Part shown: one piece after another, positions 10,777-35,512 of the stretch
How the letters are laid out: each line of letters starts with the position of its first letter
How positions within the stretch are numbered: position 1 is the stretch's first letter
From: Pseudomonadales bacterium
GTDB taxonomy: Bacteria > Pseudomonadota > Gammaproteobacteria > Pseudomonadales > IMCC2047
Assembly: GCA_024234615.1 (NCBI GenBank)
Contig: JACKNY010000002.1
Span: 243,528-307,527, forward strand
Length of the DNA stretch: 64,000 nucleotides
Reading direction: 5' to 3'
Position numbers and translations under genes: made by a program
Notes under the pieces: model-generated
What the model was told of the DNA's origin: nothing
The model's input: only the letters and a program-made list of their open reading frames with translations
Databases searched by the model: none

Positions 10777-10930
10777 TGAAGTATAAGACACAAAAAAATA
10801 GTTACAACAAACACTTAGTCAAAAAATCCCGGTTTAACCAAAGTTTTTGAGATGTCTGTAACTATTTGATTTCATATAAAATTTTTAAAGAGCAATAAAT
10901 ATTAATATTTAGTTCCATATAAACACGAAG
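10777..10930 (-). promoter_or_regulatory. CRISPR leader with IHF-like sites
   Basis: AT-rich. Minus-strand AATCAAATAGTTA (10859-10871) fits WATCAANNNNTTR exactly; a 2-mismatch site lies at 10806-10818. I-F leaders are known to use IHF. Confidence 0.75.
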
Positions 10931-11018
10931 TACAGATCCAGTTATAAACGATTATTACTACTACTTCTGATACGTAAATACTCTAACAACGCTCCATTGG
11001 GGTTTGGGGGAAATCAAC

Positions 11019-11354
11019 TCACACGCCGCACCGCTCTATTTTCTCTTCAATCGCAGCACTTACGAAGGCATTTAATGATTGTTCACCCGCAGCGATTGTT
11101 GCCCGCCGATGTAAATCAGGAGAGACCCTCACATTGAATGTCCCTTTGAACGGAATATTAGGTTCTTTTTTTTGCTCTCGGCAAAAGGTTAAGTAGTCGT
11201 CAACCGCCTCTTTAAACGCTTTTTCAAGATTTTTGACTGTCGTTGCTTCGTAGTTAACCAGGTCGCGAATGTACGCCAGTTTTCCATACAGGCAGTGATC
11301 CTCCGCGCTGTATTCAGCAGTGCCATAATAGCCTTTATATTCCAGCATATTCAT
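11019..11354 (-). CDS. hicB: HicB-family antitoxin (C-terminal RHH)
   Basis: MLEYKGY.G..EY...LYGK; FKGTFNVRVSPDLH; start overlaps the hicA stop. Confidence 0.88.
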   Translation of the reverse strand: MNMLEYKGYYGTAEYSAEDHCLYGKLAYIRDLVNYEATTVKNLEKAFKEAVDDYLTFCREQKKEPNIPFKGTFNVRVSPDLHRRATIAAGEQSLNAFVSAAIEEKIERCGV

Positions 11355-11593
11355 ACTAAACCTTCACGCTCCAACATTTCTTTAACCTGCTTCACCGCAT
11401 AGGTTTTTACTTCCTTTTGCGGGTGAGGCTTATGCAACTTAATAATCACGACGCCATTGGTAAAACTAACACGTGAACCGGCACCTTCGACTTTCTGAAA
11501 TCCCAGGTGAGACAGCAGTAGAACCATATCAGTCCATTTAAATTGTCCTGTCGATGCTTTAAATCTCGCCAGCAACTTCTCTGTTTTGCTCAT
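11351..11593 (-). CDS. hicA: HicA-family toxin (RNase)
   Basis: MSKTEKLL..F, GSRVSF, LHKPHP motifs; ATG at 11593. Confidence 0.85.
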   Translation of the reverse strand: MSKTEKLLARFKASTGQFKWTDMVLLLSHLGFQKVEGAGSRVSFTNGVVIIKLHKPHPQKEVKTYAVKQVKEMLEREGLV

Positions 11594-11613
11594 TTGAGTC
11601 CTTTCAATTATGT

Positions 11614-11662
11614 GCAACTAATTATAGTTGCTCTAGCGCAATTCGCAACTAAAATTAGTTGC
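11614..11662. promoter_or_regulatory. Two 18-bp palindromic operators upstream of hicA
   Basis: GCAACTA-ATTA-TAGTTGC (11614-11631) and GCAACTAA-AA-TTAGTTGC (11645-11662), 31 bp apart; probable HicB sites (inference). Confidence 0.7.
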
Positions 11663-11727
11663 AATCTGCTCTCCTTTCTAGCCGATCATAATCACTTCAT
11701 GGCTTTATTCCCTCTGTTCCAATGAAA

Positions 11728-12279
11728 CTAGAACCAGGGAATGGTTGCTGTTTTGCTAAGGCCAAATTGATCAAATCTACCCTCCCTTGATTCATTTATT
11801 AATTCTCCAAACTCAATATAGCGCCGGTGCCGGTGCCCATTGGAACCACTCACCAATTCAACATAGGGATTATCCAGCCCTTTGGTAAACATTTTGACTT
11901 TGTATTGTTTCACTTCATCCGCCGAAATCGATCCGCGCTTTAACAAGCGCTCCAATTTTGAATGACTCATGGTGGTTTGCTTTCGCCCAACAGTCCGGTA
12001 TTGGCAATCAGAAGGGACGGGGAGCACTTCGCTGACCTGACAATAGCCTTTCATACCGCCTAACCAATCGGCCTTTTGTAGCTCGCCTAATTCCTTCGAA
12101 GCGCCATGCAGGCGCAGGATATTACCCAGGGTGATTTGATAACATGGGAAGCTGACACCTATATTTGTTGCTTCTCGGTCATTCAGGGCTTTGTGGAGTT
12201 TGGCGTAGAGCGCGTTCATAAGCACCGTTACAGGTAGTTCCGGATCCGACAATATTTTTATGTTCAGATAATATTCCAT
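11728..12279 (-). CDS. cas6f: Cas6f/Csy4 crRNA endoribonuclease
   Basis: LYAKLHKAL (catalytic His region), IGVSFP, FDQFGLS...IPWF C-terminus. Confidence 0.95.
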   Translation of the reverse strand: MEYYLNIKILSDPELPVTVLMNALYAKLHKALNDREATNIGVSFPCYQITLGNILRLHGASKELGELQKADWLGGMKGYCQVSEVLPVPSDCQYRTVGRKQTTMSHSKLERLLKRGSISADEVKQYKVKMFTKGLDNPYVELVSGSNGHRHRRYIEFGELINESREGRFDQFGLSKTATIPWF

Positions 12280-12287
12280 AGCGCCCC

Positions 12288-13313
12288 CTATTTATCACTT
12301 TCACCGAAGACACCACCTCGTACCAAAGTTGCCATGACATAGTGTTCATCTTCAACGCGCGTCAATGCTTCACCTCGCGCCCACTTGTCGAAAAAACTAT
12401 AGAAATCCTGTTTATCTTTAGGTGTACGGTAGGCTTTACCAAGATTGGTAACAGCACCATAAGGCTCGACTGCGATAGGGCCTGCCGAACTCTCTGGATC
12501 ATTAAATTCTGGGTACCAAGTATCAATGGTGCGCAGCGCGTTACCCAGCTTTTGGGAGTGCATAGCGGCAACACCATCAACCTCATACAATACTTTACTT
12601 TTATTGCCTTTACCTTTATCCAATACGAGCTCTTCACTGGGGTAAACGTCCTGAGCCTTGCCCACTTGTGCGTAGCATGTAATATCCAGCATTAGAAAAT
12701 CATCCTCGCTAGCTAGAGCACTAGCAATACAAGCAGCTAGATCATTCACCTGATGATCATCTGAATCAAAGTTACGGGGGTTGAATTGGTGCGCATCGAA
12801 CTGCCACTCCTGCTCAGCACCCTTGTTCAACGCCCTCACCTGTACTTCAATATTTTCCGCACCCACACGATTGCGCCATAGGAAACGAGCATTGGCTATA
12901 TTCAATGCATAGCGGCGCGCCAGTTCACGAAAACGCTCTTTCTCGACATAGGCTTTAGCCGCCATACTGTAACTTTGCTTAAAGGCTGCATTATTACAGG
13001 CCGACGGCTGGTGAATACCGCCTAATACTTTGAGGGTAAAATGAAGTTCAAGCGTATCCTGTTCGGTTTCGAGAGCACAGGAATCCACTGTTTGCAGATT
13101 GGCCTTCTCCACTTCTTTATTCAGCTTTACTGGATCGTTCTGAATAGCCGGTTTCAAACGATTGGAAATGGTGCCGCGAACGGATTTTTCTTTTAACTTG
13201 AGCGGGCTTGGTTCATTACGGTTGTTCCATTGAGTGCCGAACATATAACCGTCCGATGGCACCAGTTTCTTTTCAAAGGCCAGTACGGATGCAATATTTT
13301 CATTTTTAGCCAT
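12288..13313 (-). CDS. csy3: Cas7f/Csy3
   Basis: VLAFEKKL, EKSVRGTISN, NIANARFLWRNR, HSQKLGNALRTID, RGGVFG. Confidence 0.96.
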   Translation of the reverse strand: MAKNENIASVLAFEKKLVPSDGYMFGTQWNNRNEPSPLKLKEKSVRGTISNRLKPAIQNDPVKLNKEVEKANLQTVDSCALETEQDTLELHFTLKVLGGIHQPSACNNAAFKQSYSMAAKAYVEKERFRELARRYALNIANARFLWRNRVGAENIEVQVRALNKGAEQEWQFDAHQFNPRNFDSDDHQVNDLAACIASALASEDDFLMLDITCYAQVGKAQDVYPSEELVLDKGKGNKSKVLYEVDGVAAMHSQKLGNALRTIDTWYPEFNDPESSAGPIAVEPYGAVTNLGKAYRTPKDKQDFYSFFDKWARGEALTRVEDEHYVMATLVRGGVFGESDK

Positions 13314-13340
13314 GAGTTTTCTCCTTGTTTACACAGATAA

Positions 13341-14261
13341 TTAAAAGCCATCTTCTTCAAGCAAAGATTGCGGGCTTGGTTTAGATTGCTGACATAAATA
13401 CAGATTATTTTCAGGTTCAAAGTGATAGCTCCAGAACAGTTCTTGCGGAGTTTCCAATTTGTAGGCCATCTTAAACTCACCCAGAGTCACTATGCTTTCT
13501 GCAAAACGGTGAGGCACATCAGGATCGCGCTGATTTTCCGCTCGACCCAGTTTGCTAATCCCCTGAAACCCGGTAGCGATTGGAACTATCCAACCACGTT
13601 GATCCTGGTCACCGGTGGGTTTGCGCTGACTACTCCACGTCACCTTTGCTTCTCCGTTTTCTTCATGCTGCTCGCAGCTATGGTGAATTGCTAAGTAGTC
13701 CAACATGGCGTCAATAGCATCTTGACCTTGTTCCATCGCTTCAATCATTAAGTCGCGCCTCTCTATCAAGGCGTAACCGGGCATGAGTTTAGGCTTTAGT
13801 AGACTAAAATTTTTATAGAAGGCTGGTTTCTCAAAGCTTAAGATATCGCCACCGGCGATTTTTATCTGACTGTTCAAGCAATGGATAATTTTCTCCAATG
13901 CGTCATCCTCTTGCAGCTTGTCAATGCCATCGTAGAGAATCACCAAACTGACCTCTAGGTGACACCGAGCCTCTTCAATAAATGCTGACCGGGTACCGTC
14001 TTTATCCAACGGATTGGCGGTCCCGACAATGGAATATTCGAAGTCACCAGGCCCCTTGTAGGTTTGCAAATCAAACTGATGGGAAACGACACCCATCTTG
14101 TCAAAACGAGCATCAACTCCCTTAGCATTAAGTTTACGCTGCAAAGCGTGTACGACACCCAGCCAAGCGGTCATGGCCGGAAACCCAATGGTAAAAGGAC
14201 TGGAAAGTGCATTAGCATTTTGAATGCGGATATGGGGTATTAGTAGCACATTGTCAATCAT
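13341..14261 (-). CDS. csy2: Cas5f/Csy2
   Basis: IQNANALSSPFTIGFPAMTAWLG; HRFAE; operon position. Confidence 0.95.
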   Translation of the reverse strand: MIDNVLLIPHIRIQNANALSSPFTIGFPAMTAWLGVVHALQRKLNAKGVDARFDKMGVVSHQFDLQTYKGPGDFEYSIVGTANPLDKDGTRSAFIEEARCHLEVSLVILYDGIDKLQEDDALEKIIHCLNSQIKIAGGDILSFEKPAFYKNFSLLKPKLMPGYALIERRDLMIEAMEQGQDAIDAMLDYLAIHHSCEQHEENGEAKVTWSSQRKPTGDQDQRGWIVPIATGFQGISKLGRAENQRDPDVPHRFAESIVTLGEFKMAYKLETPQELFWSYHFEPENNLYLCQQSKPSPQSLLEEDGF

Positions 14262-15523
14262 CGCAATGCCTCCCGATGGGTTGTGATCACGCCTTTAAGA
14301 TACTCGCGTTCAGCAGAACCTAAAGTAACCGATTTTTTTATCGTCTTTTGGTAGGCCTTGCCGATCCAAAGGGTGATTTCCTTGCAGAGTTCCATCAACC
14401 ATTCATCCTCCTTCTCTCGCTGCAGTCTGTATTCAGGGCAAAGCCAGATTTTTTGATATTGCGGTAATTGGCTGGTTTCCTCCCGATACTGCTCTTCAGC
14501 GATAGACCGCAGGGCCGCCATCCGCGGGATAATCACATCGAGAATTTCCTCAATCCGGTGATCTCGCCCGCTTTCCAGATTGCGGCGTGGAATCATACTG
14601 TCCAAGCCAATTTTGAAAATGCTGTGTAACTTTAATAATGCATCATGAATGTCGTAATAACGAATCGCGTTAGTAAAAAAGTTTTTGACAGGAAATTGAA
14701 TATCACGTTTTACCAACGTCGGAGGTACTGACAAAAGCAAACGCGCTTTACCCCCGTGCTGATTGTTTAATACGCTTATATTTTGCGGTTTCGTGCCACC
14801 ATAGCCAATTGTCGTGATGTCATAGATTTCTGAAAAACTCTTTTCACTCGGCTGATTGTTGCGTTTCCGCTCACGCAGGATCTTTTGATTTTCAGAGAAT
14901 CGTAGCGCATCAATGCGATGACGCAACTCGTAAATTATTCCAGAGTTGCTCAGTATAGAGAGCTGGTGATAATTATTACCCGCAGGAAAGTAGACCTGTT
15001 TAATTTTGGAGCTGGTTATACTTTTGTCACTGCCTAAAGTCATCGCCAGAAAACCGTCTTTTAGCGTTTGATAATTTTCCGTTTCAATCGACAATAGTTC
15101 CTTAGCCAAATCAGAATCATGTTGGATATGTTGCAGCAACGTTTCACCATTTTGCATCTCCAAAGTGAGAAACTTGTAGACATCCAGAGCAGCGGCATTA
15201 CCCAGTGCATCACCCTGCACCTGAGCATTGCCGGTTCTTAGGTAACCGTCTGGTGCTTGGGAGGCGCTAGCGATAACAGAGGTTACATACCCATTTTTAT
15301 TCTTTCTTGCACTGGGATGACTAAATGTACAGGGATGACTAGAGATGTTTATTTGACCGGCGCGTTTGGCCGCATTAGGTAGCCATTGCTCGGGAGAGAA
15401 AAGCTGCTCACACTCAAACTCTAGTGCCAGCACTTCGTCGTTCTGCATCGAGGGTTTCAAACTTTTTTTTAACCAGCCTTCTTTACGCTCAGTAAAAAAG
15501 GCACCTATTGCAGGGTCTAGCAT
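14258..15523 (-). CDS. csy1: Cas8f/Csy1
   Basis: WLPNAAKRAGQ, SHPCTFSHP, GNAAALD, KQVYFP, GGTKPQNIS. Confidence 0.96.
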   Translation of the reverse strand: MLDPAIGAFFTERKEGWLKKSLKPSMQNDEVLALEFECEQLFSPEQWLPNAAKRAGQINISSHPCTFSHPSARKNKNGYVTSVIASASQAPDGYLRTGNAQVQGDALGNAAALDVYKFLTLEMQNGETLLQHIQHDSDLAKELLSIETENYQTLKDGFLAMTLGSDKSITSSKIKQVYFPAGNNYHQLSILSNSGIIYELRHRIDALRFSENQKILRERKRNNQPSEKSFSEIYDITTIGYGGTKPQNISVLNNQHGGKARLLLSVPPTLVKRDIQFPVKNFFTNAIRYYDIHDALLKLHSIFKIGLDSMIPRRNLESGRDHRIEEILDVIIPRMAALRSIAEEQYREETSQLPQYQKIWLCPEYRLQREKEDEWLMELCKEITLWIGKAYQKTIKKSVTLGSAEREYLKGVITTHREALR

Positions 15524-15526
15524 GAA

Positions 15527-18500
15527 TTATCTCCTTTCGTCCTTAAACAACCCAAATTGATCGTCGTATATATAATTAGGGGGTGATTGATTCTCATAGG
15601 GCTCTTGAATCACCACCTCGCCATAACGAAGAGCCGCCGTATTCAGGCTGATTTCTTTTTGCTCAGCCTGTACTTCAAGAAGGCTGCGGTAATCTCGAAA
15701 AAGCCAAAACCGCTGTCGCTGCTGATCAGAAAGCTCCATATTTTGAATACGGTAGCAATCGTCCTGATTGATTAGATCTCCCGCGACTGTGAATGCAGCT
15801 TTCCCCTTATTATCTTTTTCTGTGAAATAGCAGTGTCCTTTGTCATCAAAACAGCGATACAGGTGTATACTCGCCCTGCTTTGCCGGAAGCGATTAAGTG
15901 CTTGTGGCAAAGCTGTCATAAACCAATTTTGGCTTAAATAGCCCTGCAGTGTTTCTGGGCCTTTTGCATCGTATTGTTTCAGCCAATGCGCGGTTACAGC
16001 ATGTTCCAATCGGGCAAGGCCAAAACCTTTTGGCGGATTTTCATCGATGCGGGGTATGGCATCCAGCCGTTCTGCAACCGATTTTTCATTAACCAGTATT
16101 CTCAAATCATGAACTTCACAGGACGCGCTTCGCTCTCTCCCATTCACCTTGATCTGGCCATTAAACTCATAGCCTGGCATGCAAAAATAACAGGCGTGCT
16201 TTTTATCCCCCGACTTGATGGTTTTCCAATTGTATTGCAACAAGCCGACATTCGATGTTTGAACCGCCCCGGAACGGTGACGCCTCACCCGTCCGGCCAG
16301 TTGAACAATGGAACGATAAGATGAGGGTTCAACAATGGCCCAATCAAAATCATGATCGCGACCAACCTCTTCTACCGGAGTAGCGATCAGAATAAACACT
16401 ACATTTTTGGGCGGCTCAGATTGATTTGATAACGAATCCAGGTGTTCCCGAATCAGAACATTTTTGAACGCTTTCGCTTTTTCACCGAGTTTTTCCTTAT
16501 ACTTTAGCACCGCATCCAGATGCCTTTCCTGTTCGTGCCTTAATAACATTACCTGTTGGCTGTGATAGGGCATCACCCGGATTGCTGTATCTGTGGGTAA
16601 TGGGCATTCCAGCAGATAACGTGTCAATGCAATACAGGGGGAAATGTTAGCCATGCGCACCACACCAAAAGATACTTTCAAATCAGTTGCTTGATCAGTT
16701 TGGTGGTGTTGATGGTGTTTGATCAGAGCATCCTGGAAAATGGTCTCGAAATAGCCTGTCTGTCTCGTTGTTTCAATATCACCCTTCCCTGAGGCTTCCA
16801 GCTCCAGTATCATTTGACAATCAATAATATTGGCTTTGCGTTTTGCCTGCTGTTTACACAATGCAGCGACCCTCTTTTCGATAAAAATACTGTGTGCGGC
16901 GGCATACTCCTGGTTTGCTTGCACTGCATTCTGGGCGCTATTGTTAACAATGTGGGTAGTGAACTCGTCAATCCAGGCACAGCCTATAACCTGGCTCGCA
17001 TTACGGGTTTGGCAATACAGCTGCCAGCCCCGTTGGTAACAATTAAAGTATCCTTCCGCTAAAGAAGGTGGAATCGTAGCTGAAGAGATCATCACCTTCC
17101 TCCCTAGCATTCCCGCTAAATGAATCAAACGTCCAATAGCAATTAAGTCCGAGCCAGTAAAGTCGTCAATTTCGTCAATGACTAAATCTGACGACATCAA
17201 ACGCAGGCTCGGTAAGATATATCGCCCACCACGGGTGGTTTCGGTGGCTGCCATGATGTGGTCAATGGTGCAAGTTAGGATGGGGGCATAGAGGAAAGCT
17301 CTGTCTCTTTGGGTTTGTAGCAGCGTCGCTAACCCATCCTCAGGAGTATCACTATCAAAAATAACCTCATCACTATTTCCAAGCAGAGATTCCTGCGATT
17401 CTGAGCCCTGCTCCGTTGTTGTGTCACCCTCAGCTTGCTCCTTCGCCTGCGCGTGCAACTCAGCGACTGCTTTGGAACCAATTAACACCGCTAAATCACT
17501 ACCGTCAGTATTTTTGAAAATTCTTTCGCGATATTCGTCACCGGTTTGTAATGTCAAAGTGCGCAGCCCAAGCGCCAAAATATAGCGAAGGCTATCCTGG
17601 TTCTCAGAAAGCGCTAACATAGCTTTCGCATTGGCAAAGGTTTTGCCGCTACCCGTACTAGCCATATTAACGGCGAAAAAACCATGTTTCGTTTCGTTAC
17701 TGGCTTTAACCCACTCTTGGATTTTCGAAGCTGCCCTATCCTGCCAGCGGTACTCGGCGGGGCTTTTTTTTCTAAGCTCGGCAATGTTGTCAGAATCCGG
17801 TAATGCCTGCTCCAACACAGGAAGCTTATAGACATTACGCAGTGCCTGCCGGTAGACACCCACTAGATGCTGATCCAATGACTGTTTGGGCGAACCACCC
17901 TTTTGGGTATTGGCGACCAAGCCAGTGGTATTTCGCCACTCACCGGACTCCTTTAAAGTCAGCGATGAATAATAGTGATCACCCAACATCAGGCAAAGGC
18001 GGGCATGATGTAACACCGTCCGGTAACTACCATCTTGCATAATCTGTGCGACAAGCTCTTGTTGGCCTAGCAGCTTTTTAGCCCAACGTTTGAGTTCTTT
18101 TAACCAGGGCTGGGAATTACTAATTAGCCCCTTGGGGAAATGAAGACAATCTTTAAGCTGCTGATCGTAGCCATCAAATCGGTTTTCGTAACTCCAATCT
18201 TGAGTAATGTATGCAAACAGGTCGTCCATAGTTTCCGTTGCAACACCGCACCACTCATTCAGTAATATGCTAGGCTTTAAGGTCTGCAACGGTAAGCGGT
18301 GGTGGGTTAAAATCAACCAAGCAACCAGCTTAGCTGTCTGCGGTAGCTCGGCAAGCGGCCTTCGAAATTTTAGAAGATCAGTTTGCTTTAACGCTTCTTC
18401 ATTAATTTCGCCCTCGGCCAGCTGCGTTAACCAACCGCTATCCGACTCCGAATCCGTCTTGCAGATCAGCGCTTTGAGTAATAGACAAGAGATCCATTCA

Positions 18501-18949
18501 TGGCGAAGTGCATCGCCGTATTTGCCTTTGTACTCCTGTGATAATTTTTCCTGAAAGCGGGCGCTGGCTTTACCCCAGTCATGCAACAAGGCCGCCAGGG
18601 ATACCAACGACTGAATAAGGGGAAGATACTTCCAGTCAGCGCGATCATCGCGGTACGTTCGATTAACCGTGGTGCTATTCACGGGAACTAAACCCAGACC
18701 ATTAAATTTGCTTTTATTCCCAACCAACCAAACCAACTCCGTCCGTGACCGGCTCCTTACCCAATGACAACTCACCGCCGTATTCTTGGTTGCAGTTTTG
18801 CGCAGCAGTTTTTTCACTGCCAACAACCCTTCTTGCGTGATGACGGTTTGCCAAGTATTGTCACCAATGCGGTCCGCAAACGCATCCAGCACCCGCCGGG
18901 TACGGTTAAGTGCCTTTTTCTCGCATTGAGAGACGAAAGTGACCATCAT
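15527..18949 (-). CDS. cas3f: Cas2-Cas3 fusion (Cas3f) nuclease-helicase
   Basis: N-term MMVTFVSQCEKKAL...RVLDAFA (Cas2), LLHDWGK (HD), MASTGSGKT, DEIDDF, SAT, QLAGRVRRH. Start set at ATG 18949. Confidence 0.97.
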   Translation of the reverse strand: MMVTFVSQCEKKALNRTRRVLDAFADRIGDNTWQTVITQEGLLAVKKLLRKTATKNTAVSCHWVRSRSRTELVWLVGNKSKFNGLGLVPVNSTTVNRTYRDDRADWKYLPLIQSLVSLAALLHDWGKASARFQEKLSQEYKGKYGDALRHEWISCLLLKALICKTDSESDSGWLTQLAEGEINEEALKQTDLLKFRRPLAELPQTAKLVAWLILTHHRLPLQTLKPSILLNEWCGVATETMDDLFAYITQDWSYENRFDGYDQQLKDCLHFPKGLISNSQPWLKELKRWAKKLLGQQELVAQIMQDGSYRTVLHHARLCLMLGDHYYSSLTLKESGEWRNTTGLVANTQKGGSPKQSLDQHLVGVYRQALRNVYKLPVLEQALPDSDNIAELRKKSPAEYRWQDRAASKIQEWVKASNETKHGFFAVNMASTGSGKTFANAKAMLALSENQDSLRYILALGLRTLTLQTGDEYRERIFKNTDGSDLAVLIGSKAVAELHAQAKEQAEGDTTTEQGSESQESLLGNSDEVIFDSDTPEDGLATLLQTQRDRAFLYAPILTCTIDHIMAATETTRGGRYILPSLRLMSSDLVIDEIDDFTGSDLIAIGRLIHLAGMLGRKVMISSATIPPSLAEGYFNCYQRGWQLYCQTRNASQVIGCAWIDEFTTHIVNNSAQNAVQANQEYAAAHSIFIEKRVAALCKQQAKRKANIIDCQMILELEASGKGDIETTRQTGYFETIFQDALIKHHQHHQTDQATDLKVSFGVVRMANISPCIALTRYLLECPLPTDTAIRVMPYHSQQVMLLRHEQERHLDAVLKYKEKLGEKAKAFKNVLIREHLDSLSNQSEPPKNVVFILIATPVEEVGRDHDFDWAIVEPSSYRSIVQLAGRVRRHRSGAVQTSNVGLLQYNWKTIKSGDKKHACYFCMPGYEFNGQIKVNGRERSASCEVHDLRILVNEKSVAERLDAIPRIDENPPKGFGLARLEHAVTAHWLKQYDAKGPETLQGYLSQNWFMTALPQALNRFRQSRASIHLYRCFDDKGHCYFTEKDNKGKAAFTVAGDLINQDDCYRIQNMELSDQQRQRFWLFRDYRSLLEVQAEQKEISLNTAALRYGEVVIQEPYENQSPPNYIYDDQFGLFKDERR

Positions 18950-19165
18950 GAGTTTTATTAATCCCATTCTATTTGTAAGGATTAGACTGTTGTCACGCCA
19001 ACGAATCAACAGCCTTCGCCCTAATGACTACCCCAAATACCAGATGCAGCATCCAAAGACTCGGCGATTGGTCTTCACTACCAAAGAAGACATCAGCCTT
19101 ACTCTCGACGAGAGTATATTTTAAATAAAATCTATTTAAAACCTATAGGAAGTTGATTTAATATA

Positions 19166-19247
19166 TAACTCTGCCGTATAGGCAGCTTAGAAATATAGTA
19201 AGTTCATTTAAATCTTTATCTTTACTGCCGCACAGGCAGCAGACCAG
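19166..19247 (+). ncRNA. CRISPR mini-array (degenerate repeat - 26-nt spacer - degenerate repeat); putative CreR/CreA-type regulatory RNA
   Basis: Repeat 1 TAACTCTGCCGTATAGGCAGCTTAGAAA (19166-19193); spacer 19194-19219; repeat 2 CTTTACTGCCGCACAGGCAGC... (19220-). Both Cas6f hairpins intact. Spacer matches 19144-19161 behind a CC PAM. Confidence 0.85.
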
Positions 19248-19282
19248 GGAGAAATCACTACATGTGTTTCTCCCTGGTTTTT
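19243..19282 (+). terminator. Intrinsic terminator closing the mini-array transcript (possibly bidirectional)
   Basis: 12-bp stem ACCAGGGAGAAA / TTTCTCCCTGGT followed by a T run. Confidence 0.7.
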
Positions 19283-19300
19283 CCAATTTCACTTTGATGA

Positions 19301-19885
19301 TCATTTCCCCGCCAACTTTTTAACAGTTTTGTTCTCTACCAGTAGCCCCATCTGTTGAATAGCGATCTGGTTAAGACGAACTAATCGTTCTTGTTGGGCC
19401 AACCCATCGTTAATAAATACCGTATTTAGATTTCCCATATTAGCCAAGCAAACCAATTGGGTAACATTCGCGTAGTCACGAATATTGCCACTTTTGTCTG
19501 AGTGTTCCGCTCGCCATTGAGAAGTGGTTTTACCAAAAAGCGCCACATTGAGGACATCAGCTTCACTGGCATACATCTGGTTTATTGCCTGCTGTGATAA
19601 AGCTTCGGGCACCAGATTTCCTTTAATGGCATCGGTATGAATACGATAGTTTATTTTGGCTAGATTACGCTTAATGTCCCAATCTAAGCCTTTTTCTTGC
19701 TCGCTTTTTAACCCCTGAAACTCTTTGATTAAATAAAACTTGAACTCTACTGAAACCCATGACGCGAACTCTAATGCAATATCAGCAGGCGACTCAGGGT
19801 TTTTATATTTTGCAATATCTGTGATGCTAATAAAGTCTTCGGTGCTCGTTTGAGTGAATGAAATTTTCCTGCCAATAACATCCAT
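19301..19885 (-). pseudogene. KilA-N-family DNA-binding protein with in-frame deletion of the KilA-N core
   Basis: FISITDIAKYKNPE joins directly to DIALEFASW..EFK.YLIKEFQ.LK; C-term KINYRIHTDAIK, YASEADVLNVALFG, NIRDYA typical of the family. Confidence 0.7.
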
Positions 19886-20068
19886 AGTCTGATTCCTACT
19901 ACGCATTACCCATACCCCTCTTTGTAACACTGAAACCTTTAGCCGTTATCAACACGATTAAGAAAATATAATCATTCGATAAAATAGTGATGTCTTCCCC
20001 CTGAATCGTCACCAACTTATATTTGCTCACCATTTGTTTTGCTCCTACTACATTTATATCCATATTCA

Positions 20069-21028
20069 CTACTTGGCTGCTTCAAGCGCATAAGAATCTA
20101 GTGCAACTGCTTTCACCTGATCAAACATAAAATCCAATGCCTTATGCTGGGTAAAAGCCTGCAAACATTGCTGACGAAACTCCTGTTCGGTAGCATTTTC
20201 TTTGGCGCTAATAAAAGACCAGGGCAGAATCAGCGCGTCTTTGATCAGGTCTGCGATATCAAATACCAAGGCACCTCTCCGGGTTTTACCGTGCATCACT
20301 GCAAAACCATGAGGAATGCCTAATACCCATAGGGTGGTCGCAGCCAGACCATAAGCGAGGTAGTTGCCATGATTGAGAAATGCGTTAGCGGTGTCAGTAG
20401 CTTCACGCTCGCGTACAAAATCACCGTATTTGGTGCTGTTGGCTGCCGTTTTATATAGCTGCTTGGTGAGCTGGGCTTCGATTTTCAGAAGGTCACCAAC
20501 TTTCGACGCTTTTTCGATTTTGTGAAGAAAGTTATTTAATGCCTGGATAATGTGGTCATCATCGCTGCTAAAACCCTCTGCTTTTAAATCGCGATCTTTG
20601 CGCCAAACTTGCTGCAGGTAAGAAATTCTTGCTCGTTGAAAATATTTTGCGGCTTGCAAGCGTTTTTCGTCGTCAAACCAGAATTGCATCCAGCCCTGGA
20701 TATATTCGGTAGGACGGTATTCGCTTTGCGGAGACAGCCATTCAATTTCGTTCGCCATGAGCAATGGCGTCCCACCTCCACCACAAAAGCCTAGCAACAC
20801 GCCTGCTTGCGCCAGCATTCTGGTAGCGGCCTGTGTTATCGATGTTCCAGTACCAAGCAAAAGGCAGGTGGTATTAGCGATCGGGATATTCCAATACTGA
20901 TTTTGATTTTTCTCTTCCGTGAGGTAGAGCACACGGCCATCCTTCTGCATGACACGGCATTTTTCGAGGTAATAGATATTGGCGCGCTTGGAGTGCAGGA
21001 TTGCTTTAAGGTCTGTTAATTGATCCAT
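20069..21028 (-). CDS. cas1f: Type I-F Cas1
   Basis: ILHSKRANIYYLEKCRV, WNIPIANT, GTGTSITQAA, LNHGNYLAYGLAA, HGKTRRGALVFDIAD. Confidence 0.98.
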   Translation of the reverse strand: MDQLTDLKAILHSKRANIYYLEKCRVMQKDGRVLYLTEEKNQNQYWNIPIANTTCLLLGTGTSITQAATRMLAQAGVLLGFCGGGGTPLLMANEIEWLSPQSEYRPTEYIQGWMQFWFDDEKRLQAAKYFQRARISYLQQVWRKDRDLKAEGFSSDDDHIIQALNNFLHKIEKASKVGDLLKIEAQLTKQLYKTAANSTKYGDFVREREATDTANAFLNHGNYLAYGLAATTLWVLGIPHGFAVMHGKTRRGALVFDIADLIKDALILPWSFISAKENATEQEFRQQCLQAFTQHKALDFMFDQVKAVALDSYALEAAK

Positions 21029-21067
21029 CAACAAAACTCCATTCCTGAAGCCCAGTTTCGATAGTCC

Positions 21068-21506: not shown

Positions 21507-22490
21507 TTAGGGCTGGCGGATGCGTTTGCCGCTGTAGATTTCCAGCCCCGCATGCAATCGATTTTGCACAGCCTTGCGCAATTTTACCGGCGCTTCAACA
21601 TAAACGTGAGGAATGTGTTTTAGGATATCCTGCATCAACTCCCGTTCATCCGCATAGGGTAAACTGAGCAGATATTCATTCCCTTGCCATTCTCCTTGCT
21701 GTTGCGGATGCCATTGTTGAAGTGCGATTTCGCGAGCAATTGTTTGGTCGAATCTTAGCTTGGCGGTATGTTTGGCTTGACCGGCAAAGATACCAAAACT
21801 TTGTTCGAAATGGTCTCTCAATACTTGGGCAGGAATAGCCTTTGCTTTCTGATCGGTGATTTCCAGCCATTCGATTCTGGCTAACGAAAAGGTACGGAGC
21901 TCTTGGCGCAGATGACACCAGGCATCGATATACCAGTTTTCGCGATAATACACGAGATTTTGCGGGCTGATCAGGCGCTTGGTTTTCTGTTGATGATAGC
22001 TCGAATAGCGAATGTTCAAACACTGGTGCTGTAGCAACGCTTCACCCACCAACCGAAAAGTGCGGTTGGTAATCTGGCGGTTTGCCATGGGCAGCACTTT
22101 GATATGCTGATCAAACTCGGAGCGTTTGATACCTCTGGCACTTAACAGGCGGTCGATTTGCCGGTCAATCACCCCCAACTCGTCACGCAACAAGCCTTTG
22201 CCAAAGCTTTCCATGCTGTGCATGAGTAGAGTGAGAGATTGCAGTTCATCACTGGTTAGCCAGAGGCCGGGCAGTTCAAATAAATCTCTGTTTTCCCCAA
22301 CATATTGCCAGCCTTTTTCCTTAGCAAAATACTCAATTGGCGCATCGAGATAATCCCGCATTTGCGCTATAGTGCGTTTGACAGTTCTTTCGCCACACTC
22401 TAATTTTTGTGCGAGCAAACTCAGAGTAACTGGTCGTCGATGGTTCTTGAAAATACGATGCAATAGTTGGAAGCGGTCGAACTTGTCCAT
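21507..22490 (-). CDS. WYL-domain transcriptional regulator (HTH-WYL-WCX)
   Basis: N-term wHTH (LAQKLECGERTVKRTI), ENWYIDAWCHLRQELRTFSLARI, SFGIF. Confidence 0.93.
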   Translation of the reverse strand: MDKFDRFQLLHRIFKNHRRPVTLSLLAQKLECGERTVKRTIAQMRDYLDAPIEYFAKEKGWQYVGENRDLFELPGLWLTSDELQSLTLLMHSMESFGKGLLRDELGVIDRQIDRLLSARGIKRSEFDQHIKVLPMANRQITNRTFRLVGEALLQHQCLNIRYSSYHQQKTKRLISPQNLVYYRENWYIDAWCHLRQELRTFSLARIEWLEITDQKAKAIPAQVLRDHFEQSFGIFAGQAKHTAKLRFDQTIAREIALQQWHPQQQGEWQGNEYLLSLPYADERELMQDILKHIPHVYVEAPVKLRKAVQNRLHAGLEIYSGKRIRQP

Positions 22491-27139: not shown

Positions 27140-27196
27140 TTGGCAATAAGGTGCCTTTGTCTGACTGAAGCCTAATCTACGAAGAGTATCGAGCGG

Positions 27197-27300
27197 TCAC
27201 TCCCACTCTATTATCAATAAGCCTTTTTTGTCTTTAATATTCAATAGCTTATTTTCCTGCTAAATAGGAATACCATGAAAAATACCATGCTCAAAAATTT
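27197..27300. repeat. att junction 1 (outer boundary): guaA-end core plus arm repeats
   Basis: TCACTCCCACTC (reverse complement = E-W-E-stop), then AATACCATGAAAAATACCATG at 27269-27289; imperfect ~100-bp direct repeat of 31481-31585. Confidence 0.85.
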
Positions 27301-27437
27301 CTTGTAAATATATATCCTGAGCGGAAGAATGCGCCACTTTACAGCATCGATGCAGATATCTCTCAAATCCAGTTTCATCTGCCGGGGTCTCTAACCCCGC
27401 TTTCGCAGAAAACATCCTCAAGTAACAACGACTCCGG

Positions 27438-28848: not shown

Positions 28849-31278
28849 ATGTCTAACCACCATCCACCCAAAGAGAAGCTCCGCGGCAGCGGAAATAAGT
28901 TTGGTGATATCTCCACTATCGATGCAAGATTGACTGAGCTTGAGCAGGAAAAACAGCAGCTCATGGCTCTCAGGGAAAAGCTGCAAAGATCCAAGTCCCC
29001 TCCCCCCGCTTCGGACTCACTCTCACCGGAACAAAAAATTGCAATTTTCAGAATGCTGTTTCGCGGGCGCACCGATATTTTTGCCAATCGCTGGCAAAAC
29101 CAACAAGGACGAAGTGGCTATTCCGTAGCCTGTAACAACGAGTGGGTTCAGGGCATCTGCAAAAAACCGAGGATCAAATGTCTTGACTGCACTCACCACC
29201 AGTTTAGCGAGTTAAACGATCAGGTCATTTATCGCCACTTGGCTGGACAGCAGATTGTTGGCTTGTACCCTTTACTCCAAGATAACACCTGCTTCTTGCT
29301 GGCCGTCGATTTCGATAAAGGCAGCTGGCAAGACGAAGTAAAAGCGATGTCCAGAGCTTGTACCGAATATAGCGTGCCTCACGCTGTAGAGATTTCCCGC
29401 TCAGGAAATGGCGCGCATCTCTGGATATTTTTTGATGAAAAAATTTCCGCCAACGAAGCTCGCTTACTGGGGTTCAGCCTGCTGGGTAAAGCGATGGAGA
29501 TTTATCCAAACCTGTCTTTCGATTCCTATGACAGATTGTTTCCCAATCAGGATATTCTTCCTGAAGGTGGATTCGGCAATTTGATTGCTTTGCCGCTCCA
29601 ACGCGAAGCCAGGCAAGCAGGCAATAGCTCATTTGTCGATAAGGAATTGAATGTCATTGAAGATCAATGGCAGTACCTCGCAGAGATAAAGAGGCTTTCC
29701 AGATCTGAGCTAAATAAGCTTCTTTCGCAGATTTCTCCCAATGGAAACCTGATTTCAGAGCAGGATGTTAATGATACCCGGCCACCCTGGGAGATAACAG
29801 CCAAACCCAAGCCACTGATTCTGGAAAACCCACCTCAACAGATAACGATAACGCTCGCCAACCACATCTATTTCGAGATAAAGTCTCTGCCAGGCGCTCT
29901 TTCAGCAAGATTAAGACGTTTAGCGAGTTTTTCGAATCCGGTTTTCTTTAAAACACAGGCGCTTCGCTTTTCTACTCACGGCATTCCGAGGTTCATTTCT
30001 TGCGCACGCATTGAGCAAGGCTACTTGGCATTGCCACGCGGGTGTCTGGATGCGGCCCTCGCCTTATTGCAAGAGAACAATATTGACGTCCAAATCGATG
30101 ACAAGCGTGAGCCGGGAACAAAGCTTTCTTCGATAAAACCGCTGCTAACTTTAAGAAAAAACCAACAGGCCGCTGTTAAAGCAATGAGCAAACACGATAC
30201 AGGAGTACTGCATGCACCTACGGCATTTGGCAAAACCGTAACGGCTATCGGAATGATCGCCAAGCGTAATACAAACACGCTCATTCTTGTGCATAGCCGC
30301 CAGTTGCTTGATCAATGGCAGGAAAGACTGCGTTCGTTCTTACCAGAAGCAGAGATTGGCGTCATCCGAGGCGGTAAGAAGAAGCCGGCCGGAATCATTG
30401 ATATAGCGACATATCAAAGCCTGATTAACAAGAAAGACAATACCGTCTCTCCCATTGTTCAGGACTACGGGCATGTCATAGTTGATGAATGCCACCACGT
30501 ATCCGCCCCGCGCTTTGAAATGGTATTGAACGAAGTTCGAGCGAAGTACGTGCTCGGCCTTACTGCTACCCCGGAAAGACAGGACGGCCACCAGAAGATC
30601 ATCTTTATGGCTGCCGGCCCCATTCGGCACAAAGTTAAAAGCTCAACTGAAGGAAACTTCGAACAAGAAGTTCAAGTCCATCAATTCTATGATACGCCCC
30701 CACTACATCTTTCCCAGCCCGAGAAGCGGCCCAAAATTACAGATGCCTACCGGTGGATAATGGAAAACGAAGAGCGAACACAACGAATTGCTTCAGATGT
30801 GATCAATAGTGTTCGCGAAGGCAGGCACCCAATCGTCCTCACTGAAAGGCGCGAACATGCCGAGATGATTAACAACCTTCTCCAAGAAAACGGTATTGAT
30901 TCCATCATATTAAAAGGCGCAATGAAAGCCGCTGAACGCAAGCGAGTTGATGAGCATTTGCATTCGGCGCAGGTTGTGGTCGCCACCGGAAAGTATGTGG
31001 GAGAGGGTTTTGACTTGCCCAGGCTGGATACACTGTTTCTTGCCATGCCCATCGCCTGGAAAGGTTCGTTAGCGCAATACGCAGGAAGGATTCATCGGGA
31101 ATCAGACGGCAAAACGCAAGTGACGATTCACGACTACGTTGACTGCGGACTTCCCATGCTCCAGCGCATGTTCAATAAACGCGAAAAAAGCTACAAGTCG
31201 ATGGGCTATACCATCTTGTTCTCAGGTGAATCAGACAGCTCGAATGGCACTAAGCAACTTGATGCCATGCTGGTGTAG
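28849..31278 (+). CDS. Archaeo-eukaryotic primase-like (TOTE-type) domain fused to SF2 DEAD/DEAH helicase
   Basis: N-term LFRGRTD, Cys cluster (C..C..C..C), AVDFD, SRSGNGAHLW; C-term APTAFGKT, VDECHH, GLTATP, GEGFDLP, QYAGRIHR. Confidence 0.82.
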   Translation: MSNHHPPKEKLRGSGNKFGDISTIDARLTELEQEKQQLMALREKLQRSKSPPPASDSLSPEQKIAIFRMLFRGRTDIFANRWQNQQGRSGYSVACNNEWVQGICKKPRIKCLDCTHHQFSELNDQVIYRHLAGQQIVGLYPLLQDNTCFLLAVDFDKGSWQDEVKAMSRACTEYSVPHAVEISRSGNGAHLWIFFDEKISANEARLLGFSLLGKAMEIYPNLSFDSYDRLFPNQDILPEGGFGNLIALPLQREARQAGNSSFVDKELNVIEDQWQYLAEIKRLSRSELNKLLSQISPNGNLISEQDVNDTRPPWEITAKPKPLILENPPQQITITLANHIYFEIKSLPGALSARLRRLASFSNPVFFKTQALRFSTHGIPRFISCARIEQGYLALPRGCLDAALALLQENNIDVQIDDKREPGTKLSSIKPLLTLRKNQQAAVKAMSKHDTGVLHAPTAFGKTVTAIGMIAKRNTNTLILVHSRQLLDQWQERLRSFLPEAEIGVIRGGKKKPAGIIDIATYQSLINKKDNTVSPIVQDYGHVIVDECHHVSAPRFEMVLNEVRAKYVLGLTATPERQDGHQKIIFMAAGPIRHKVKSSTEGNFEQEVQVHQFYDTPPLHLSQPEKRPKITDAYRWIMENEERTQRIASDVINSVREGRHPIVLTERREHAEMINNLLQENGIDSIILKGAMKAAERKRVDEHLHSAQVVVATGKYVGEGFDLPRLDTLFLAMPIAWKGSLAQYAGRIHRESDGKTQVTIHDYVDCGLPMLQRMFNKREKSYKSMGYTILFSGESDSSNGTKQLDAMLV

Positions 31279-31325: not shown

Positions 31326-31585
31326 GATACCATGCCAGCATCAATCTTCCTCTCATGGTATCGATGTAATGTGCCTTGTTACGCGCAAAAAAATACCATG
31401 AAAAATACCATTGATGATGCAGATTATATTATCAATTGGATTATTTTTATTGTTATTTTTCAATATGTTATGAATTCCCGTCACTCCCACTCGATTGTAA
31501 ATAAGCCTTTTTTATCTTTTATATTCGATGACTTATTTTCCTGACAATTGGTAATACCATGAAAAATACCATGCTCAGAAATTCC
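31326..31585. repeat. att junction 2 (between tandem elements)
   Basis: IR GATACCATG/CATGGTATC (31326-31362), AATACCAT pair 31392-31411, core TCACTCCCACTCGAT 31481-31495, AATACCAT pair 31553-31573. Confidence 0.85.
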
Positions 31586-31646
31586 TTCAAAATACTCAAA
31601 AAAATTGCCGATTGAAAGCTCTCACACTGCCCCTTGGTAATATCGC

Positions 31647-32449
31647 TTACCCAGCATTCAGCCGGTTCTGGAAATCAGCGACTTCCTCCAGAATCTCCTC
31701 AAATGTTGGCACATCACCATAGAACATTTCCTGCTGCATACTTTCATAATCGGCCTGCCATGCAGGGAGATCGGCGGCTGAGGGTACCAGCTGCAGTTCC
31801 TGCGGATTTAGCGTCGAATAGTCGACCCATGTATAGCGGAAGAACAGCTGACGATGCATGGCAATACGATGGAATAGTCCGAGATCCCGGACAGATTCGT
31901 CACCCACTCCGGCCTGAATCATCCTGTAGAGGTCATCGTAATGGCGGGCCATCGATCGTCGCTGCTTTTTTCTGGCTTCTGGTCGAAATGTCTCCTCATG
32001 CAGCAGCATTGCCTTTCCCAGGAATGTGCGCTCTGGCCGCACTGCCCTCACCTCTGAACCTGGCTCGGCCAATAATTCCGGGAAGGCTTCGTTGATGTAG
32101 GGCGTGATTTCGACGGATGCAACAGGTTCTGTATTTGACCGGGCGCCCATCTCAATCTTTACAGCACGACGCAGATAGGCGGCCTGCTCCGGGAAGGCCG
32201 TTGGATTCAACAACAGCAAGGTCTGTTCATCGGGATCGTCGGGATCAGGCTCAAGCGACCATTCGAGTGTGTCCGATAAATCTGATGAGATCGATTCGAT
32301 GAGTGTCGGTTGAATCTGGTCGCTGATACATTGCTGGCAGGCTTCTTTCAGCGCCTTGAGGCGCTTGGTCATCTGTTTCCTGCTGGGTGCTTGTTCCGGG
32401 GCATTTTCTCCACCAAAACCCAAGGCTTCCCTGTCGATGACGATATCGA
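31647..32449 (-). pseudogene. AbiEii/AbiGii nucleotidyltransferase toxin, 3' exon
   Basis: [42 protein letters not shown]; continues RFSED from the 5' exon once the intron is removed. Confidence 0.85.
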
Positions 32450-34328
32450 GGTGAGTCGGCCAGCGGAACTTCCCCGCCAGCCGCTCTCCGAACCGTACGT
32501 GACAGTCTCCCGTCATACGGCTCTCCTTGCTCCATCAGCCGGTAAGTAACCGAGAATATTCCAATGTGCGAACAGCTTGGTCTTCCGGCGGGCCATCTTG
32601 CCCAAGGCATGTATTGCCCGCCGCGGTTTGCGTCTGAACGTCTTGTACTTATTCGCCACCCATTTTCCCAGATGCCGGTTAATATGCTCAGCCAGGGAAA
32701 ATAAGGCAGATTTGTAGTACTTGCTGTAATACTGAATCCACCCCTGTGCGATTGGATTAAACATCCTCGATAGGTCTTCTATGCTTTTCTCGCAACACCA
32801 TTTCAATCTCCACGCCCTGACCGTTCTTTTCATCGCAGTCAGCGCATCCCGGCTGACTGCCGGGAGGAAATTGCAGAACAGCTTTCCGTATCGGTTCCTT
32901 GCCCCCCTCGGTCTGAACTCAAACCCGAGGAATTTGAAACTGATATTTGGATAGCGCCCCTTGCGATCCGCATCCTTGCAATAGACGATCTTCGTCTTGA
33001 TCGGATGAAGTTCTAAGCGGCATTCTGCCATTCTTGCTTCGAGATGTTGCCTCAACGCCTTGGCCTGAGCCTCACTCTTGAGATGAATAACAATATCATC
33101 AGCGTACCGCTCGAACAGTACGCGCGGATAAGTCCTTGTCATCCATTGATCAAATGCATAGTGCAGGTAAAGATTTGCCAACAGGGGACTGACAACCCCC
33201 CCTTGCGGCGTACCCTTGCTCCGCTCCTCCAAACGTCCATCTTCATGCTGAACTGGAGCGGTTAACCATCTTTGTATGTATAACCGTACCCAAGGGTTTT
33301 GGGTGTGCTTATGCACTGCCTTCATCAGCAGGTCGTGATCGATGTTATCGAAGAACCCCTTGATATCGACGTCCAGAACGAAGTCATTGCGCCAGCATCG
33401 CTGCCGTGCCCTGCCTACTGCCTGGTGTGCCGATTTGTTAGGGCGATAGCCATACGAGTCTTCGTGGAAATAAGGTTCTATTTCCGGCTCGAAGGCCATT
33501 TTCACAACCGTTTGCGCGATTCGATCCGATACCGTCGGCACTCCTAATGGCCGTACACCTCCATCCGCCTTGGGTATTTCCACCCGTTTGACGGCTGGCG
33601 GGAAATACGTCCCCGATGCCATGCGATTCCAGAGTTTATACAGATTGCGTGGCGCATTCCGATTGAACTCCTCGATCGTCTGGTCATCGATGCCAGCGGC
33701 TCCTCCCTTAGCGCAAACTCGTTTATACGCATCCCAGACCATTCGCTTGGTTATCTCAAACGGCCTTGTTGTTATACTGAGCTCATCCTATTCCTAGTTG
33801 GCAAAATTTAACAACGAAACAATTGAACCCCTTCGCTCCAGGCTCATTACAAGCCATTCACCACTACTACGGGTTCTTCCGCCCCTGAACTTCCCATCGA
33901 TATTTCGCCTCGTGGGGGCTCCACTTGTGCTTTTCTCTTTGCATGGAAGTCCAGGTTCCCACGTTCCATGGATGAGCCTGTATTCGGGTCACGCCACCTT
34001 TACACCGGACACCGCTTGAGCCGTCATTTATAGGTCACGCTCAAACTTTTCCAGGGCGAAGACAGTTCCCTGTTCTGATGTCATCTCTTTCTTTCGATGC
34101 TTCAACGGTGATTCGCTTACGCTCGTCTCCTCGAACACGTACTTAACATGGTCATGCCATGCCTTTTCCATAACGCTCACGACCATGACTCTTTATCACA
34201 GCCGCTTATGGTAGTTTGCAACCCAGCCTATCCCTTGGTTGCGAGGGGCCTTCCCTCATCTCATCCACAGTTACACACTTCGGTTGTGATTCTTTAGCTC
34301 ATCACTTCCTCCATGCTTCGTGGCACAC
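32450..34328 (-). mobile_element. Group II intron, 1879 nt, RmInt1-like (class D, IIB)
   Basis: 5' GTGTG at 34328; domain V GAGCCGTATGACGGGAGACTGTCACGTACGGTTC; domain VI with bulged A at -7, ending CTCACC; EBS1/EBS2 complementary to the flanking exon; splicing restores the host frame. Confidence 0.93.
32513..33742 (-). CDS. ltrA: Group II intron reverse transcriptase/maturase (no endonuclease domain)
   Basis: [63 protein letters not shown]. Confidence 0.95.
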
Positions 34329-34530
34329 TATCTTCGGAAAAGCGTTCGATGAGATTCCAGCACTTGGATAACGACGTACCACCCTTAAACGTCAGATGTT
34401 TGCCCCATTCGGGCAGATCGAATAATTTGCCCAGCGTCCAACAAACCCAGAAGTCCTTTTCGACGGCAATCTCGAACAGATTCAGTTGTGCGCCTGTCTC
34501 CGTACAGACGAGCCGGCGACGTTCTTCCGG
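34329..34530 (-). pseudogene. AbiEii toxin 5' exon, start codon lost
   Basis: Manual translation [29 protein letters not shown]...[20 protein letters not shown]; no in-frame start found upstream. Confidence 0.8.
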
Positions 34531-35003
34531 CCCAGGTGGCGCAGTGCCTGGATCACCAACCCACTGATCTTTCCCGCAGTGGCCATATTGCGGGGAGTCG
34601 TGTGCTTCAGGATGATCTGGCGCTTGCCAACCTGGACAGTCCGCGAGCGGCCATCCGTTAAATAAACAACCTTCATGGGGACTTGCGTGGAGAGCCCAAG
34701 CAAATTAGCTGCGTAGGCCCCGGAGGGTTGAAGCCGGGTGGCGTCGCGACCTGCAAGTGCGCTTGCGATATCATCCGTCGATGGTTGCAACGAACCCAAC
34801 TGGGGATCAATTTTCGGGTAATCGTAGAGTCCCCGGGCCAGCTGACGGATAAGGCCGCTGTCCCGATGCCGCATCAGTGCCAGATCGACAGCCCCGCGGG
34901 TACCAAGATCCGTAAAACTATCGGGCGTAAAGACCCAGCCCCGCTTGCGGCCCTGAATCCGGCGGAGGATCTTGCTGTCGGTACTGTCTGCGTGCCTGCC
35001 CAT
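34482..35003 (-). CDS. AbiEi-type antitoxin (DUF6088 family), C-terminally truncated
   Basis: [42 protein letters not shown]. Confidence 0.85.
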
Positions 35004-35309: not shown

Positions 35310-35463
35310 GATACCATGCCAACATCAATCTACCCCTCATAGTATCACTGGTTTTTACATTACAGTGCGCAGGAAAACGCCGATTGTAAACAGGCCATTT
35401 TCCAGCATTATTTTCAATTGTTTATTTATTGGTGCAGGTGAGAATACCATGCAAAATACCATG
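35310..35463. repeat. att junction 3 (diverged)
   Basis: GATACCATGCCAACATCAATC...CATAGTATC (cf. 31326), CGATTGTAAA (35381-35390; cf. 31492), AATACCATGCAAAATACCATG (35443-35463). Confidence 0.7.
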
Positions 35464-35512
35464 TTCAGCATTTACTGCTAATCGATACGGTAATCACCAA
35501 TTCACACGTGCA

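Follow-up and report, generated by a model that had tools for sequence, protein, structure and literature searches.

A class D-like group II intron that probably homes to the DNA encoding the catalytic motif of AbiEii toxins

A group II intron splits the AbiEii gene

We analyzed a 64,000-nucleotide (nt) stretch of the genome of a Pseudomonadales bacterium (GenBank assembly GCA_024234615.1, contig JACKNY010000002.1, positions 243,528 to 307,527), hereafter called the window, in which a group II intron interrupts the toxin gene of an AbiE abortive-infection (Abi) module. The module is read from the minus strand, to which all of its coordinates below refer. It begins with a gene for an AbiEi-type antitoxin of the DUF6088 family (34482..35003), which is truncated at its 3' end and encodes 173 amino acids (aa) that match positions 1-156 of the 172 in the PF19570 profile (E 1.8e-52). 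Next comes exon 1 of the AbiEii toxin gene, a remnant without a start codon (34329..34516), whose translation includes motif I (GGT) and motif II (R...D) and which ends with the A of an Ile codon. The intron (32450..34328) follows, and exon 2 (31647..32449), identified by translation and by PF08843, supplies the TC of that codon and continues as DIVIDRE... to the stop. Motif I, hG[GS], and motif II, R-x3-D-h-D, define the AbiEii nucleotidyltransferase (NTase), and in the S. agalactiae protein, where motif II is R63...D67-h-D69, each of R63, D67 and D69 is required for toxicity (PMC3985639).

The original prediction, made from the sequence of the window, was that the intron splits the Ile codon of RFSED-I-D as A/TC (here and below, a slash within a sequence marks the insertion point). 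This was confirmed: the minus strand reads ...CGC TTT TCC GAA GAT A/GTGTGCC ... GACTCACC/TC GAT ATC GTC..., and joining of the exons restores RFSED-I-DIVID within a protein that matches PF08843 AbiEii at 4e-37 and contains the motifs FKGGTS...RFSEDID. The intron sits between the codons for two catalytic aspartates, i.e., within the 'h' codon of motif II, and on this strand AbiEii reads CGCTTTTCCGAAGATA upstream and TCGATATC downstream of the insertion point.

The intron itself is 1879 nt long (GUGUGCC...GACUCACC) and is annotated as bacterial class D, IIB-like, its identity and extent being supported by Rfam matches, an identical second copy and empty-site alleles. Its 5' end, GUGUG (34328-34324), agrees with the GUGYG that is expected of group II introns. 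A domain I segment at 34141..34257 matches Rfam family RF01999 (group-II-D1D4-2; 93.5 bits, E 9e-18), and domains V and VI at 32450..32525 match RF00029 (60.8 bits, structure alignment). The RF00029 alignment places a bulged A in the 3' strand of domain VI, approximately 7 nt from the 3' end of the intron, and this residue is likely the branch point. An open reading frame (ORF) at 32513..33742 encodes a 409-aa reverse transcriptase (RT)-maturase, the intron-encoded protein (IEP), which contains YADD and matches the Pfam families RVT_1 (5.8e-42) and GIIM (2.4e-14), and around 650 nt of the intron RNA lie outside this ORF. Domains V and VI and the YADD motif had been described earlier as intact, in agreement with the RF00029 match over 32525-32450 and with the ...ERYADDIV... 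stretch of the IEP. The earlier assignment to the minus strand was likewise correct, but its upper limit, 34342, took in exon positions -14 to -1; the true 5' end is at 34328.

An identical second copy and empty sites

The same genome contains a second copy of the intron, 100% identical to the first, in another AbiE module (C2:13060..9235, locus L004 of genome G000). The host module of this copy has an intact 205-aa DUF6088 gene and a full-length exon 1, and its AbiEii protein is 28% identical to that of the window. The insertion is nevertheless at the same codon, reading GAT CGA TTT TCT GAA GAT A/TA GAC, which encodes DRFSED-I-D. Only two AbiEii genes were found in the genome, and both carry the intron. 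At approximately nt 745, the second copy is in turn interrupted by an IS21-type insertion sequence (IS) element of around 1.9 kb (IstA, 355 aa; IstB, 257 aa).

Alleles without the intron were also found. In a genome of the same genus (G009, locus L197), the orthologous AbiE locus is 94-97% identical at the DNA level and intronless, and its empty site reads CGT TTT TCC GAA GAT ATC GAT. Similarly, four metatranscriptomes, from groundwater, mollusc and other sources, have contigs with alleles that are approximately 95% identical and skip exactly 32450-34328, all 1879 nt. Because intron coverage was absent there, we consider these joined forms to be intronless alleles and not spliced RNA. The empty-site alleles prove the exact boundaries of the intron. 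When the family's 12 genomes were searched at the DNA level, the intron was absent from the 11 others. The original prediction had taken the insertion point for a cognate homing site; the occurrence of identical copies in paralogs of 28% identity, along with the empty orthologous site, provides evidence for this proposal and demonstrates, at the level of sequence, that the intron has moved recently.

A lineage of introns that occupies the same codon

In a protein search with the window IEP, 56 IEPs stood apart as a group at 67-87% identity, after which identity dropped to 64%. These 56 IEPs form a clade with 100/100 support (IQ-TREE), which includes all 11 AbiEii-resident IEPs, spread over both of its deep branches. 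Its sister group contains the RmInt1-like IEP of S. meliloti, together with an intron that resides in an RT gene. The latter (L180, approximately 2430-2450; 64% IEP identity) lies directly after CGA TAC GCC GAC GAC (RYADD) in the RT gene of another group II intron, which makes it a nested element with the RT catalytic motif as its target.

Among 13 genomic contexts of clade members, 12 place the intron at the same AbiEii codon: the two copies of the source genome and ten metagenomic or isolate loci in which the insertion point is R[FYLM]S[EV]D/[ILV]D (L165, L168, L169-171, L172, L173/174, L175, L176, L177, L178 and L179). The host AbiEii proteins are only 24-76% identical, several pairs being alignable only around the motif, while the IEPs are 71-86% identical. 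Three types of antitoxin, DUF6088, AbiEi_3 and AbiEi_1/AbiEi_4, adjoin the host genes. The antitoxin gene lies upstream in a bicistronic arrangement, with DUF6088 directly upstream in the window, L165, L169, L178 and L179, and AbiEi_3 or AbiEi_1/4 upstream in L172, L173 and L176. The prediction that the lineage spreads through abiEii genes is therefore upheld by occupancy of one codon in highly divergent hosts.

The exception, L166/167 (approximately 2438 and 4326), is located in an outer-membrane beta-barrel gene, at ...SSSVD/LG, with CGTAGATT before the insertion point and T after it. In this intron, exon-binding site 1 (EBS1) is GGUCUUC instead of UGUCUUC, the exon reads GTAGATT, and pairing at position -1 is restored. 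Other copies in unrelated targets with the same EBS sequences would have spoken against a cognate site; the recorded flanks contain this single unrelated target, which combines a changed EBS1 with a look-alike of the home site.

Additional searches defined how far the lineage extends. Searching 400 genomes of the class with the IEP gave no further clade member, and the phage collection held no copy of a clade intron. In the plasmid collection there was one copy, in Aquicella lusitana plasmid 4 (L172/L181); a second group II intron RT gene adjoins the Rep gene of this plasmid (L181, 1-492). IEP scans of genome and metagenome contigs yielded, among the matches listed, only relatives of at most 63% identity, which were used as the outgroup. 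AbiEii was absent from the flanks of the 80 genome loci with such IEPs, the 80 metagenome loci being outside this screen. A scan of viral contigs for the junction pattern gave two matches resembling GAAGAYA/GTGTGCCRCG (L188, 4138-4154; L189, 5556-5572), both in non-AbiEii contexts. Both fail the pattern for the intron 3' end, and they could represent chance matches or other introns whose intron-binding site 1 (IBS1) is similar.

Exon recognition

The IBS1 of the window, GAAGATA, comprises exon positions -7 to -1 (34329..34335) and pairs with EBS1, UGUCUUC (34058..34064), in the 11-nt loop of a hairpin with CAGGG and CCCUG arms. The stem of this hairpin shows compensatory changes across relatives (consensus fold). 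A perfect complement of EBS1 would be GAAGACA, so that GAAGATA leaves one G-U pair, exactly as originally described. UGUCUUC is kept in the AbiEii-resident copies with the exception of L172 (GAUCUUC), and IBS1 is GAAGAYA in most of them, with differences at 1-3 positions in L172, L176 and L177.

The EBS2 that had been proposed, GGAAAAG (34163..34169), did not withstand comparison with relatives. It is complementary to CTTTTCC of the exon, but it does not vary among the 12 clade introns even though their exons do (3-7 of its 7 positions pair), it is part of the RF01999 consensus, and 127 of 160 outgroup loci, which have unrelated targets, contain it too. For these reasons we regard GGAAAAG as a conserved structural motif of the intron class, not as an exon-binding sequence, and its perfect match to CTTTTCC is a coincidence of the Phe-Ser codons (TTT TCC) at this site.

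Instead, EBS2 is likely GAAAG (34087..34091), in the 11-12-nt terminal loop of a hairpin with CAUC and GAUG arms (consensus fold) around 45 nt upstream of EBS1. The candidate IBS2 is CTTTT, exon positions -14 to -10 (34338..34342). The loop of this hairpin is variable and matches the exon of each intron: GAAAG with CTTTT in the window copy, GAUAG with CTATT in L176, UAAUC with GATTA in L172, GACA with TGTC in L175, GAAAC with GTTTC in L179 and AGAAAUG with CGTTTCT in L177. Cognate loop-exon pairs outscored non-cognate pairs (permutation p = 0.002), which points to covariation of EBS and IBS in this lineage. In RmInt2, IBS2 is also at -14 to -10, with a 2-nt linker (PMC4615759). IBS3 is the T at 32449, and position +1 is T in every clade copy.

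The intron-encoded protein and the class of the intron

The PDB relatives of the IEP are group II RTs. GIIM spans residues 302-372, with no Pfam domain in the 37 residues that follow, and the IEP lacks DNA-binding and endonuclease domains. The IEP is 59% identical to the 419-aa IEP of S. meliloti. Class D IEPs have a C-terminal motif defined as LX3AX3PXLF[V/A]HW (PMC4615759), which is found in the window IEP with T in place of P, the same replacement as in the S. meliloti protein (LERIARRQTGLFAHW). Similarity at the DNA level extends to introns of Sinorhizobium, Rhizobium and Shigella plasmids. In the tree, which included no other named intron classes, the AbiEii clade has the S. meliloti IEP in its sister group. 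We file the intron, provisionally, as a new clade that lies either inside bacterial class D or next to it.

A DNA run (X3) and an RNA run (X45) each contain one extra base after 33775, in the region 33786-33742. This base brings an ATG further upstream, at 33786, into frame, and the IEP would then be 424 aa long, as in relatives. The 409-aa start in the window may reflect genuine variation or an indel introduced during assembly.

The closest known systems are RmInt1, RmInt2 and Sr.md.I1 of Sinorhizobium (class D, structural subgroup IIB3). Like the window intron, they are around 1.88 kb long and encode an IEP of approximately 410-420 aa with RT and maturase domains and the class D C-terminal motif but without the DNA-binding/endonuclease domain, and the 7-nt EBS1, the likely 5-nt EBS2 that would pair with -14 to -10, and the 2-nt linker of the window intron are as in RmInt2. 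In contrast, RmInt1-type introns reside in IS transposase genes (ISRm2011-2, IS66), whereas the home of the window intron is the catalytic motif of a toxin gene, its IBS3 is T, and its lineage forms a clade of its own (100/100 support). Group IIC and IIC-attC introns, such as B.h.I1, are likewise compact and endonuclease-less and have a lineage-wide target niche. However, they recognize the stem-loop of a terminator or attC site plus a short IBS1, without EBS2, while the window intron lies inside an ORF with no upstream hairpin, has approximately 650 nt of non-ORF RNA and possesses a likely EBS2. Assignment to group IIC was rejected, as the 5' exon is protein-coding and contains no hairpin, and EBS2-type covariation is present.

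Effect of the insertion on the toxin

The original prediction suggested that the intron either makes toxin output dependent on splicing or disarms a defence module. Translation of exon 1 reaches a stop 11 codons inside the intron. In addition, the window copy has lost 168 bp at a junction with 13 nt of microhomology (34517..34529). This was evident from contig X26, the same-genus locus L197 and a MAFFT alignment with L165; X26 and L197 contain 155 extra nt plus the 13-nt overlap. The deletion took out the 3' end of the antitoxin gene, approximately 37 C-terminal codons of which are absent relative to L165 and the same-genus ortholog, and the start of AbiEii (MKEFIE...). With the start codon deleted, splicing could not restore the toxin of the window, which is dead already, as the gene does not encode an intact, expressible protein. 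Both AbiE modules of the genome are dead, the first through this deletion and the second in that its intron is split by the IS21-type element.

Decay of the host gene is not confined to this genome: L175 and L177 are pseudogenes, and an IS element lies inside the intron at L178 as well as in copy 2. The element at L178 is of the IS256 type (Transposase_mut; 1620-2918), and another of this type lies just downstream of the intron at L170 (2926-4164). IS insertion into or beside these introns seems to be frequent. In vivo, exon ligation by RmInt1 amounts to 0.07% (PMC3035460). We conclude from these comparisons that insertion would usually disarm the toxin. Thus, the disarming half of the original suggestion fits the data, while splicing-gated output is not applicable to the window copy, which has no start codon.

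Probable retrohoming into the AbiEii catalytic motif

Together, these observations make it highly probable that the window contains a mobile, RmInt1-like class D intron of the IIB type, which retrohomes to a cognate target, the part of AbiEii/DUF1814 toxin genes coding for NTase motif II (R-x-S-E-D-h-D). EBS1 would pair with GAAGAYA, the Glu-Asp-Ile codons, the 5-nt EBS2 in the neighbouring loop (GAAAG here) with -14 to -10, i.e., the third base of the Arg codon plus the Phe/Tyr codon, and a putative EBS3 with T+1. Conservation of the catalytic site would fix these target bases, plus G-15, G+3 and A+4, in AbiEii genes that are otherwise highly divergent, and one intron lineage could therefore invade many AbiE subfamilies. 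By analogy with RmInt1, the intron may integrate at replication forks, reverse splicing into the DNA that is single-stranded there. In practice, insertion would amount to a knock-out of the toxin, given the stop codon 11 codons into the intron and the 0.07% ligation of RmInt1. A toxin of a toxin-antitoxin (TA) or Abi system may be a safe, widely distributed and often mobile harbour, since its loss is never lethal.

Several observations weigh against this interpretation. Genomic context was checked for only 13 of the 56 clade members. Neither a spliced junction nor a homing event was observed directly: metatranscriptomes of the organism, from the study that produced the DNA run in which it was present, contained low-depth RNA of the intron 5' region (100% identical) but no exon or junction reads. 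The upstream IEP start that relatives use is absent from the window, due to the 1-nt indel. EBS2 pairing is imperfect in L173, L178 and L169, its register is ambiguous by 1-2 nt because the exon is T-rich and the loop A-rich, and EBS3 was not located in the intron. Finally, full-length exons are kept in five relatives (L165, L169, L172, L173 and L179), in which some production of toxin through splicing is possible but unsupported.

The last observation, together with the antitoxins retained in these five relatives, speaks for the alternative that AbiEii is made only upon splicing, the intron acting as a regulatory layer or lowering the toxin:antitoxin ratio. It is consistent with this model that every copy lies within the ORF in the sense direction, at a position that exactly restores the frame. 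However, sense orientation and restoration of frame are automatic for any retrohomed intron, the hosts are often decayed (the start codon lost in the window, pseudogenes at L175 and L177, two introns split by IS elements), RmInt1 ligates 0.07% of its exons in vivo, and no spliced RNA was seen. A splicing-gated toxin is therefore improbable. A related and broader proposal, that the clade serves as an RNA-guided 'toxin disarmer' which moves on plasmids and other mobile DNA and silences the AbiE abortive-infection or addiction modules of cells that it enters, or else as a splicing-gated AbiEii switch, is in our view unlikely; if true, a group II intron lineage would be active in defence and counter-defence instead of being neutral junk.

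Chance or ectopic insertion of a generalist intron, with an incidental location in AbiEii and coincidental complementarities, would accommodate the clade member in the beta-barrel gene (L166/167), and the match of GGAAAAG to the exon is indeed coincidental. This explanation was refuted by the survey of contexts, 12 of 13 of which are at the same codon, and by the ectopic site itself, which resembles the home site (GTAGATT/T) and is accompanied by an EBS1 altered to match at -1; we consider it very unlikely. A single ancient insertion, inherited vertically with the AbiEii family without ongoing homing, could explain the window copy and L165 as a pair (hosts 76% and IEPs 86% identical), yet it was refuted by the identical copies in 28%-identical paralogs and by the empty orthologous site at 94-97% identity, is at odds with IEPs far more conserved than hosts across the clade and with the absence of the intron from the 11 other genomes of the family, and is hardly credible.

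Significance of an intron niche in a toxin gene

According to the prevailing view, group II introns of bacteria stay out of conserved protein-coding genes and reside in IS elements, terminators or attC sites. On the other hand, inteins and group I introns home into conserved catalytic sites, where a target within the active site is fixed by purifying selection and is available in many hosts. Retrohoming of the window intron would follow the same strategy, a conserved active-site target; it differs in being RNA-guided and directed at a dispensable, toxic gene, whereas homing of inteins and group I introns is endonuclease-driven and their target essential. Conservation of motif II would provide a target shared across genera, in a gene that is dispensable, safe to break and often on mobile DNA.

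Class D group II introns are known elements; what is new is a lineage-wide niche at the catalytic motif of a defence toxin. Full-text literature searches did not turn up any earlier description of a group II intron within AbiEii/DUF1814. The niche accounts for a class of 'split' AbiEii annotations, e.g., that of Aquicella lusitana plasmid 4, and offers a natural example of a targetron-like knock-out of a defence gene. It also presents a tractable system for studying the evolution of class D EBS and IEP specificities, and whether intron insertion modulates abortive infection.

Surroundings of the AbiE module

Direct repeats of approximately 100-115 nt, 70-88% identical, at 27196-27310, 31480-31594 and 35380-35481 bound two tandem cassettes in the window. 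The first cassette encodes a TOTE conflict-system AEP-helicase (28849-31278), and the second consists of the AbiE module with its intron. Given these repeats, the AbiE module looks like a mobile cassette. Elsewhere in the window, a type I-F CRISPR-Cas locus extends over 7148-21034, with 61 CRISPR-DR4 repeats at 7148-10776, a Cas2-3 fusion at 15527-19009 and Cas1 at 20069-21034, and is followed by a gene for a WYL regulator at 21507-22490.

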